60,829 nucleotides of DNA from Candidatus Magasanikbacteria bacterium RIFCSPLOWO2_12_FULL_43_12 (GTDB lineage: Bacteria; Patescibacteriota; Patescibacteriia; Magasanikbacterales; UBA922), in assembly GCA_001783065.1 (NCBI GenBank), contig MFQN01000011.1, positions 1-60,829 on the forward strand. Reading direction: 5' to 3'. The notes beneath the pieces are model-generated. The model had not been told where the DNA came from and made no database searches. It saw nothing but the letters and a program-made list of their open reading frames with translations. This document shows positions 52,673 to 52,709 of this stretch, one piece after another; positions within the stretch are counted from its first letter, which is position 1, and every line of letters begins with the position of its first letter. A program made the translations under genes and the position numbers.

Positions 52673-52709
52673 TGCAAGCCTCGTAAGCTTCTTAAGCCTT
52701 GTAAGCCTT
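52673..52709. repeat. Family-E 9-mer array (AAGCCTYGT)n in the gyrB leader, ending 9 nt before the ATG
   Basis: aagcctcgt aagcttctt aagccttgt aagcc, then tttttatttt ATG. Confidence 0.7.

Follow-up and report, generated by a model that had tools for sequence, protein, structure and literature searches.

Short tandem arrays beside start codons in a Candidatus Magasanikbacteria genome: putative arms of hairpin-forming intergenic elements

Why would unrelated genes of one bacterium carry nearly the same short tandem array directly ahead of their start codons? In the window (that is, the whole analyzed stretch of 60,829 nucleotides from Candidatus Magasanikbacteria bacterium RIFCSPLOWO2_12_FULL_43_12), an earlier note had described arrays of the 9-mer AAGCCTYGT before queA, rodA, gyrB, and rplA, and it had offered three options for them: initiation signals independent of Shine-Dalgarno (SD) pairing, sites for a translational regulator, or REP-like hairpins. 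Here, we consider how the arrays are laid out, what becomes of them in relatives, and which genes they accompany.

Arrays and inverted pairs in the window

The four sequences quoted in that note, at gyrB, rodA, queA, and rplA, are found in the window as written, and Pfam identifies the genes as queA, FtsW/RodA, an intein-containing gyrB, and rplA. The arrays adjoining starts are real: AAGCCTYGT has nine exact matches in the window, about ten times the shuffle expectation (0.88 ± 0.98, with 0 of 100 shuffles reaching 9), and all copies lie in arrays beside start or stop codons. At one mismatch or fewer, the unit marks arrays at 9130-9168, 9467-9507, 39365-39426, 52667-52711, 59995-60034, and 60125-60165. 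The last AAGCM lies 3 nt from the ATG at queA, 8 nt at rodA, and 10 nt at both gyrB and rplA, where the earlier note had given 8-10 nt throughout. Its three inverted pairs were likewise recovered (9127-9168/9467-9507, 39369-39391/39404-39426, and 59995-60026/60134-60165), with complementarity of 93% over 29 nt at queA, 100% over 23 nt at rodA, and 84% over 32 nt at rplA, as were the other repeats it had cited, namely CATCCTA (4708-4753), CCTACAC (16404-16433), ATTAGTAT (17442-17493), and an AAATTG-type array (59074-59110).

The 9-mer is part of a more general pattern. The window holds 57 arrays of period 6-10, against 9.3 ± 2.4 in dinucleotide shuffles, at a density of 3.5 per kb in spacers versus 0.56 per kb in coding sequence (6.3-fold), and the arrays in coding sequence also exceed the shuffle expectation. 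At least eight unrelated families of repeat unit occur within this one genome, and others of them, such as GACTTCR and ATTAGTAT, bracket intergenic regions in the same way: the GACTTCR/YGAAGTC family is found around secE, nusG, and rplK and inside uvrD, and the ATTAGTAT/ATTAGCAT family at two further sites (Table 1). The layout of a spacer reads stop codon, 5' arm, loop, 3' arm, 3-10 nt, ATG. Most arrays belong to inverted pairs of this kind. Specifically, arrays in gene orientation precede ATGs (3' arm 0-11 nt ahead of the next one), and reverse-complement arrays begin at the stop codon of the upstream gene on the same strand or no more than a few bases away (5' arm 0-8 nt past the stop). The complementary flanking arms form long stems of 23-36 bp, with z of about -5 to -11.

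Table 1. Coordinates of arrays, arms, and associated features in the window
Feature	Position	Strand	Remarks
GACTTC-family (7-mer) inverted pair inside uvrD	1371..1446	-	translated in frame
queA 3' arm, (AAGCCTYGT)n	9127..9168	-	directly upstream of queA ATG 9125; 93% complementary to 9467-9495
Decayed PF05635 (23S rRNA IVS protein) remnant in queA bracket	9302..9460	-	tblastn, L054 IVP
queA bracket 5' arm, (ACRAGGCTT)n	9467..9507	-	adjoins stop codon of YceG/MltG gene (9502-10590)
Hairpin, ATTAGTAT/ATTAGCAT family	21965..22052	+	42-nt arms of AATGCTAAT / ATTAGCATT units; ends 3 nt before ATG 22056
ATTAGTAT/ATTAGCAT-family inverted pair	31878..31981	-	directly after stop codon at 31995
Complete 9-mer hairpin before rodA	39365..39426	-	fills 72-nt spacer
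Promoter-like TTGAAC-17-TATAAT, TG-extended	52619..52647	+	10/12 matches; conserved in L215 and L216
Solo AAGCCTYGT array, gyrB 5'-UTR	52667..52711	+	~4.8 units; ends 10 nt before ATG 52718
7-mer hairpin (GACTTCN / NGAAGTC)	56636..56700	+	fills secE-nusG spacer; MFE -28.6 kcal/mol, z -4.8
nusG-rplK 5' arm, (GACTTCR)n	57259..57289	+	begins 3 nt past nusG stop; duplex -41.6 kcal/mol, z -6.2
Decayed PF05635 gene, nusG-rplK	57292..57502	+	residues 1-20 and 68-117 left; internal deletion
nusG-rplK 3' arm, (YGAAGTC)n	57559..57589	+	ends 7 nt before rplK ATG 57597
rplA bracket 5' arm	59995..60034	+	overlaps stop codon of Kazal/DUF333 gene
rplA bracket loop	60039..60113	+	TTGACA-17-TATAAC promoter-like site and L1-type leader GUGGGAC...ACCAC
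rplA bracket 3' arm	60125..60165	+	ends 10 nt before ATG 60174
GTCATTGCGAG...CTCGCAATGAC palindromic elements	9247-9366, 20354-20448, 30357-30471, 33212-33345, 50732-50826; also 3864, 5707, 6727		

Individual sites differ in how much of this layout they retain. The rodA element is a 23-bp perfect stem with a 12-nt loop, followed by UUUUAUUU AUG (MFE -41.8 kcal/mol, z -7.6), while the stem of the queA bracket (duplex -45.7 kcal/mol, z -8.8) encloses a remnant that matches residues 1-53 of the intervening-sequence protein (IVP) of L054 at 39.6% identity (tblastn, E 2.6e-7), with a GTCATTGCGAG palindromic element inserted beside it. At rplA, the whole spacer folds at -65.1 kcal/mol (z -5.1), the two arrays making the closing stem. 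The "complete promoter" that had been placed inside this pair stands in part: TTGACA-17-TATAAC is there, but it fails a consensus promoter scan. In uvrD, the pair (GACTTCA)n/(CTGAAGT)n reads ..FQTSDFRLQTSAPDGQPKTEDRSLKSK.. in frame, immediately ahead of the conserved TIHQAKGLEW motif. The gyrB array, which covers the coordinates given in the earlier note (52673-52709), has no complementary partner nearby, and its fold is at the shuffle level (z -0.04); since a promoter-like site lies upstream of it, the array lies in the transcript leader. At the gathering threshold, Rfam had no match anywhere in the window, rRNA included.

Several other repeats and sequence features share these spacers. A second repeat family comprises palindromic elements of ~90-135 nt with the termini GTCATTGCGAG...CTCGCAATGAC (13 exact termini vs 1.05 expected). 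A G-poor element of ~35 nt with CAATTAACAAAACACAA has four copies (27171-27214, 43125-43141, 56177-56211, and 58023-58060), two of them right after the gyrB and rplK stops, ahead of ordinary terminators, and the gyrB copy is conserved in L215. The DnaA-box-like nonamer TTATCCACA also has four copies (8000, 15390, 18144, and 45064; 0.41 expected), all in spacers and at least two (15390 and 45064) near promoter-like sequences. Conserved ribosomal-protein leaders precede rplA (GUGGGAC..GGGG..ACCAC, 60078-60113) and rplK (a GCUUCUC hairpin, 57528-57545); both are found in ~30 relatives, and neither is matched by Rfam at the gathering threshold. The gyrB gene itself (52718-56176) contains an intein at residues ~500-919, which the GyrB proteins of the closest relatives (723-756 aa) lack, and the Lys-rich N-terminal extension MPIKRV.KGR is conserved. 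Among near-identical strains, the AAAGTCCAC repeat at 52763 is one 9-nt unit longer in contig L123, and L124 has 10 SNPs clustered at 55911-56042, around a (TCCGAAG)4 repeat. This C-terminal (TCCGAAG)n repeat of gyrB was rejected as an inserted hairpin, as it sits in a linker that is variable in all relatives.

Turnover among relatives and the link to PF05635 genes

Assembly GCA_001782965.1 matches the window at 99.9-100%, and a NusG-based scan provided a further 80 loci at 72-87% identity, only one of which has the AAGCCTYGT unit. The matches listed for the 15-mer GTAAGCCTYGTAAGC in genome contigs were chance ones apart from L054 and L081 (Magasanikbacteria), which were informative. In GCA_016207245.1, for which RodA is 91% and GyrB 92% identical to the window, the gyrB leader is 25 nt long without an array, the secE-nusG spacing is 4 nt, and at rplA the promoter and L1 leader stand in the spacer without arms. 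The same is seen elsewhere: the secE-nusG spacer is 4-5 nt in L215 and L217, such that the window hairpin is a ~72-nt insertion, and both rplA arms are absent in L215, L217, and L137, where the promoter and L1 leader are kept. The gyrB array is absent in L215 and present upstream of gyrB in L216 (GyrB 86% identical to the window), with 20 of 20 nt identical. At rodA, the 9-mer hairpin gives way to another palindromic element in L211-L214; in GCA_016207245.1, this spacer holds GTCATTCCGA...TCGGGATGAC. The GTCATTCCGA element, which fills the rodA spacer in four close relatives, is related to the GTCATTGCGAG...CTCGCAATGAC family. As judged from these comparisons, the elements are insertions relative to close relatives, and they come and go.

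What persists at a given site is the pairing. In most loci whose nusG-rplK spacer is 90 nt or longer, the two terminal stretches of ~40 nt pair with each other (z -3 to -10), with the 5' arm lying 0-8 nt past the stop and the 3' arm usually ending 5-11 nt before the ATG. These arms are built of 7-8-nt repeats whose unit sequence is wholly different while the stem is kept (GACTTCR, CGGACTA, CGGCTWT, TTACGAA, GCGAAT, AATCAAG, TTAGTTAA, GAGATCN, and AATTTTT), and across 19 related species, a 5' arm scores a median of 18 against its own 3' arm versus 6 against the arm of another species. L215, in which the cassette is kept, has GACTATR in every unit of both arms, versus GACTTCR in the window. Further, in a survey that covered every spacer of 70-700 nt, bracket stems with z <= -4 were found in 14% of 205 co-directional, 10% of 41 convergent, and 1% of 67 divergent spacers.

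Between the nusG-rplK arms, many of these relatives have a gene for a PF05635 protein (E 6e-35; bAvd is hit more weakly). Searches with tblastn identified 16 IVP open reading frames (ORFs) among the compared loci of the Candidate Phyla Radiation (CPR), two of them being the decayed window copies, one between AAGCCTYGT arms (queA) and the other between GACTTCR arms (nusG-rplK). The latter matches the IVP of L141 at 90% and 70% identity over its two segments (E 3e-7 and 2e-17, tblastn), and L141, L215, L146, and L152 have intact or partial IVP genes at the orthologous site. A flank-to-flank duplex with z <= -4 accompanies 7 of 15 testable IVP ORFs versus 2.4% of 450 control genes. No PF05635 ORF was found in the rodA, rplA, and secE-nusG elements or beside the gyrB array.

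The association extends beyond the CPR. Specifically, 11 of 11 plasmid-borne PF05635 genes adjoin arrays of 7-8 nt, with inverted arms in nine, and they span the Cyanobacteria, Bacteroidota, and Alphaproteobacteria (Nostoc, Calothrix, Pseudanabaena, Geminocystis, Stanieria, Picosynechococcus, Leptolyngbya, Riemerella, and Azospirillum). Wherever both sides are annotated, the neighbors are co-directional with the IVP gene, e.g., cas6-cas4, cas10-cmr3, and iscA-sufB, and in 20 kb of Riemerella, the sole sizeable period-7 arrays are the two that flank it. The Azospirillum copy lies within the 23S rRNA gene near position 1150, with arms of tandem heptamers, and because of that location, it is a classical 23S intervening sequence (IVS). 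In the plasmid loci of SD-using taxa (L220-L228), the 5' arm unit contains GGAG or GAGG (AGGAGAT, CAGGAGT, and GAGGACG) and the 3' arm CTCC, and in Picosynechococcus, the ATG of the downstream cmr3 directly follows the pyrimidine arm without an SD of its own. The conserved Azospirillum 23S sequence GUAAGCCUGCGAAGG (L224 700-735), ~25 nt downstream of the helix-45 insertion site, resembles both the 9-mer unit GTAAGCCTY and the CCTGCGAAGG core of the GTCATTGCGAG elements, a likeness that could be chance or a trace of rRNA origin.

The comparison with known systems places the arrays among the intergenic heptamer-type repeats: they have tandem units of 6-9 nt in 2-6 or more copies, are enriched in spacers, stand beside ORF ends, and are rare between divergent genes. 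The observation of the earlier note is thus a fresh instance of a known, unexplained phenomenon. STRR heptamers of Calothrix and Nostoc, reportedly described by Mazel et al. in 1990, also form intergenic arrays. In Rickettsia, palindromic elements are repeats placed in frame in conserved protein genes, an insertion like that in uvrD, although there is one case here and the sequences are unrelated. REP/BIME, REPIN, and MITE-like palindromes are, as here, short, multi-copy, and intergenic, with several families per genome, often after stops, and gained and lost among relatives; the window arms, however, are internally tandem-repetitive, which REPs are not, and the 60-kb window has no RAYT or other transposase. 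The 23S rRNA IVS with an ORF for a PF05635 / S23p four-helix-bundle protein shares with the window long complementary arms, which in two window brackets enclose remnants of an IVP ORF, and, in Azospirillum lipoferum, arms of tandem heptamers. In contrast, the window elements lie between or inside protein-coding genes, rather than in 23S helix 25 or 45, and most have no ORF. It is RNase III that removes 23S intervening sequences, and rRNA insertions of the CPR include ones with IVP ORFs (PMC11270868). The TAACTGA heptamers of marine Beggiatoaceae, Cyanobacteria, and Bacteroidetes resemble the window arrays in having 2-6 units, mostly intergenic, forward, and just upstream of starts, with the ribosome-binding site usually missing, ribosomal-protein operons included, a patchy distribution among relatives, and no explained function (PMC4679880). 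As described, they differ in having one dominant unit and almost no inverted pairs, and that work draws no link to IVP genes (PMC4679880), whereas the window has many unit families, and pairing is the conserved feature. The GGGAATC (Xanthomonas) and GGGGAYT (Nostoc) repeats are likewise intergenic heptamer arrays, with convergent pairs between co-directional genes described for both genera (Rehm et al. 2015, PMC4692102). In Xanthomonas, 70-75 such pairs could form stem-loops; most of them lie between co-directional ORFs and few between divergent ones, and their length and sequence vary among close relatives (PMC4692102). These repeats are G-rich and quadruplex-forming with no reported IVP association, whereas CPR units are 7-9 nt long and of mixed composition. 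Neither MacGregor 2015 (PMC4679880) nor Rehm et al. 2015 (PMC4692102) mentions PF05635 genes, and our literature search found no link between the repeats and PF05635, nor anything relevant on tandem repeats of Parcubacteria or on PF05635 outside rRNA. The association of arrays with IVP cassettes, a true 23S intervening sequence among them, appears to be new.

Translational, neutral, and terminator readings

The earlier note was right that the window shows no SD signal: only 4 of 55 genes have GGAG, GAGG, or AGGA at -20 to -4, a frequency at background (7.75%), and partial loss of the anti-SD motif in Parcubacteria has already been published (PMC9297842). A search for the 3' region of a 16S rRNA gene in the window and in all loci compared found none. 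Across all called starts in the window, a T precedes the start codon (position -1) in 45 of 55 genes, with a deficit of G between -10 and -1. Over 35 related loci, the frequency of T(-1) declines as that of SD motifs climbs (rho -0.64), and this preference may reflect extended pairing with A37 of the initiator tRNA.

The arrays themselves could be cis elements of translation in SD-less leaders, serving as unstructured landing pads for the ribosome or S1 or as sites for a translational regulator, in which case the reversed copies after upstream stops would be anti-sequences that mask the pads in read-through transcripts. A translation-related role has been proposed for the TAACTGA repeats of Beggiatoaceae, which have the same layout and for which few repeat-bearing spacers have a ribosome-binding site (MacGregor 2015, PMC4679880). 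In line with this, solo arrays in the window read in the sense direction and lie 3-10 nt ahead of ATGs, the leader of gyrB is unstructured and its array occupies the same place, unchanged over those 20 nt, in L216, the rplA arms apparently came to surround a promoter and leader that were already there, SD signals are missing, and the window encodes an S1 protein with four domains (20579-21817). Nevertheless, we regard this reading as quite unlikely. The arrays are not an SD-like signal upstream of most genes at a fixed distance: only ~15 of 55 genes have one within 70 nt upstream, and the units, of at least eight families in this genome, differ among loci and species. Reversed arrays also stand directly after stop codons, and units are read in frame in uvrD. 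The density of arrays in spacers is uncorrelated with the use of SD motifs (rho -0.003, 35 related loci), so that we reject the arrays as a replacement for SD. Arrays are, moreover, missing at the same genes in relatives 79-92% identical, the closest of which have none at gyrB, rplA, or secE-nusG. Given that these closest relatives lack the 9-mer arrays at gyrB, rplA, and rodA, as well as the secE-nusG hairpin, expression of those genes does not require the arrays. General use of a repeat-based 5'-UTR architecture to give SD-independent initiation signals is thus not supported, and among the three options originally offered, the REP-like hairpin comes closest to the data. Presence of the unit in just 4 of ~90 related loci weakens the case for a sequence-specific trans factor acting on AAGCCTYGT clade-wide. 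The 9-mer copy number, which the earlier note had proposed comparing between strains, is constant over ten near-identical strain contigs, and phase variation is unlikely.

Two further readings dispense with translation. We consider it unlikely that the arrays are neutral by-products of mutation at the DNA level, whereby slippage makes the 7-9-nt repeats and quasi-palindrome template switching keeps the arms complementary, with no RNA-level function and no causal tie to the IVP genes, which would merely survive best inside hairpin loops. Such a process fits the lack of G.U excess in the arms, the fast turnover of elements among close relatives, the 9-nt copy-number change among near-identical strains, the repeats in variable protein linkers, and the excess of arrays in coding sequence. 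However, arms 300-500 nt apart keep their complementarity through replacement of their sequence, divergent spacers have almost no paired arms, arms outlast the decay of the IVP gene they enclose, and the association of IVP genes with arrays also holds in genomes with few other repeats. That the hairpins are intrinsic terminators or attenuators between genes, with the arrays simply their stems, seems very improbable. The perfect rodA stem followed by UUUUAUUU, and the occurrence of stems in co-directional and convergent, not divergent, spacers, are what one might expect of terminators, but many pairs have loops of 100-500 nt, most 3' arms have no U-tract (a U-rich tail is found at the rodA hairpin only), ordinary short GC-rich terminators are present elsewhere in the window, e.g., after gyrB and rplK, and a consensus scan finds no terminator at the gyrB or rplA sites. 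Further, a full terminator adjoining rodA or nusG would silence essential genes.

Proposed IVS-like cassettes and relics

The reading that we favor, with a probability of roughly 0.55, is that the AAGCCTYGT arrays are one family of arms of hairpin-forming intergenic elements, i.e., IVS-like cassettes and their relics. Hairpin-forming elements are common in this Candidatus Magasanikbacteria lineage. In its complete form, the element would be a cassette of 5' arm, PF05635 IVP gene, and 3' arm, which is the build of the classical 23S rRNA intervening sequence, here placed between co-directional protein genes; as noted above, ORFs or their remnants occupy this position in two window brackets and in relatives. 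The queA and nusG-rplK elements would then be decayed cassettes, those at rodA and secE-nusG arm-only hairpins, that at rplA an arm pair around an older promoter and leader, and that at gyrB a solo arm. The arrays would abut start codons because the spacers of this compact genome are tiny, such that an element fills the whole gap from stop to ATG, the 3' arm bringing a short A/T-rich tail of its own. By analogy with rRNA intervening sequences, the arms may pair in operon transcripts into stems of 23-35 bp cut by RNase III, which would excise the spacer and leave the downstream gene a leader of 5-11 nt, as an organism making no use of SD pairing could tolerate. The window has no gene for RNase III, a transposase, or a reverse transcriptase.

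The arms appear to evolve by slippage of units while staying complementary through concerted change. In 28 bracket stems, the sense-strand mismatches comprise 11 G.U versus 22 A.C, giving no sign of selection on pairing in the sense RNA. It may be that complementarity is maintained in the DNA itself or that the arms are just of recent origin. At rplA, the promoter and leader between the arms also occur in relatives that lack the arms, and hence a single hairpin insertion cannot explain this site. The gyrB array, solo and unstructured yet preserved in L216, hints at a role of its own. The mismatch count, the rplA arms around an older promoter and leader, and the retention of the gyrB array in one relative count against a plain RNA-structure model, and a translational role of solo arms accordingly stays a live minority view.

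A broader proposal, which we put forward tentatively and as more doubtful than the cassette reading itself, is that PF05635 genes everywhere reside in one cassette, with inverted tandem arrays of 7-9 nt, placed in rRNA helices or between operon genes. If this design were universal, the heptamer-type repeats of Cyanobacteria (STRR), Xanthomonas, Beggiatoaceae, and the CPR would be arms or relics of such cassettes, and the Avd-like, probably oligomeric IVP protein might itself recognize or propagate the tandem units.

To our knowledge, reports of short tandem repeats beside start codons span 35 years and several phyla without explanation, and we know of no function for the PF05635 family since 1993. 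For the annotation of CPR genomes, the results urge caution against taking such arrays for ribosome-binding signals, and the hairpin elements account for long, odd spacers within conserved operons like secE-nusG-rplK-rplA. What merits follow-up is the tie to IVP cassettes: if the repeats and PF05635 form one cassette, both questions become testable together.
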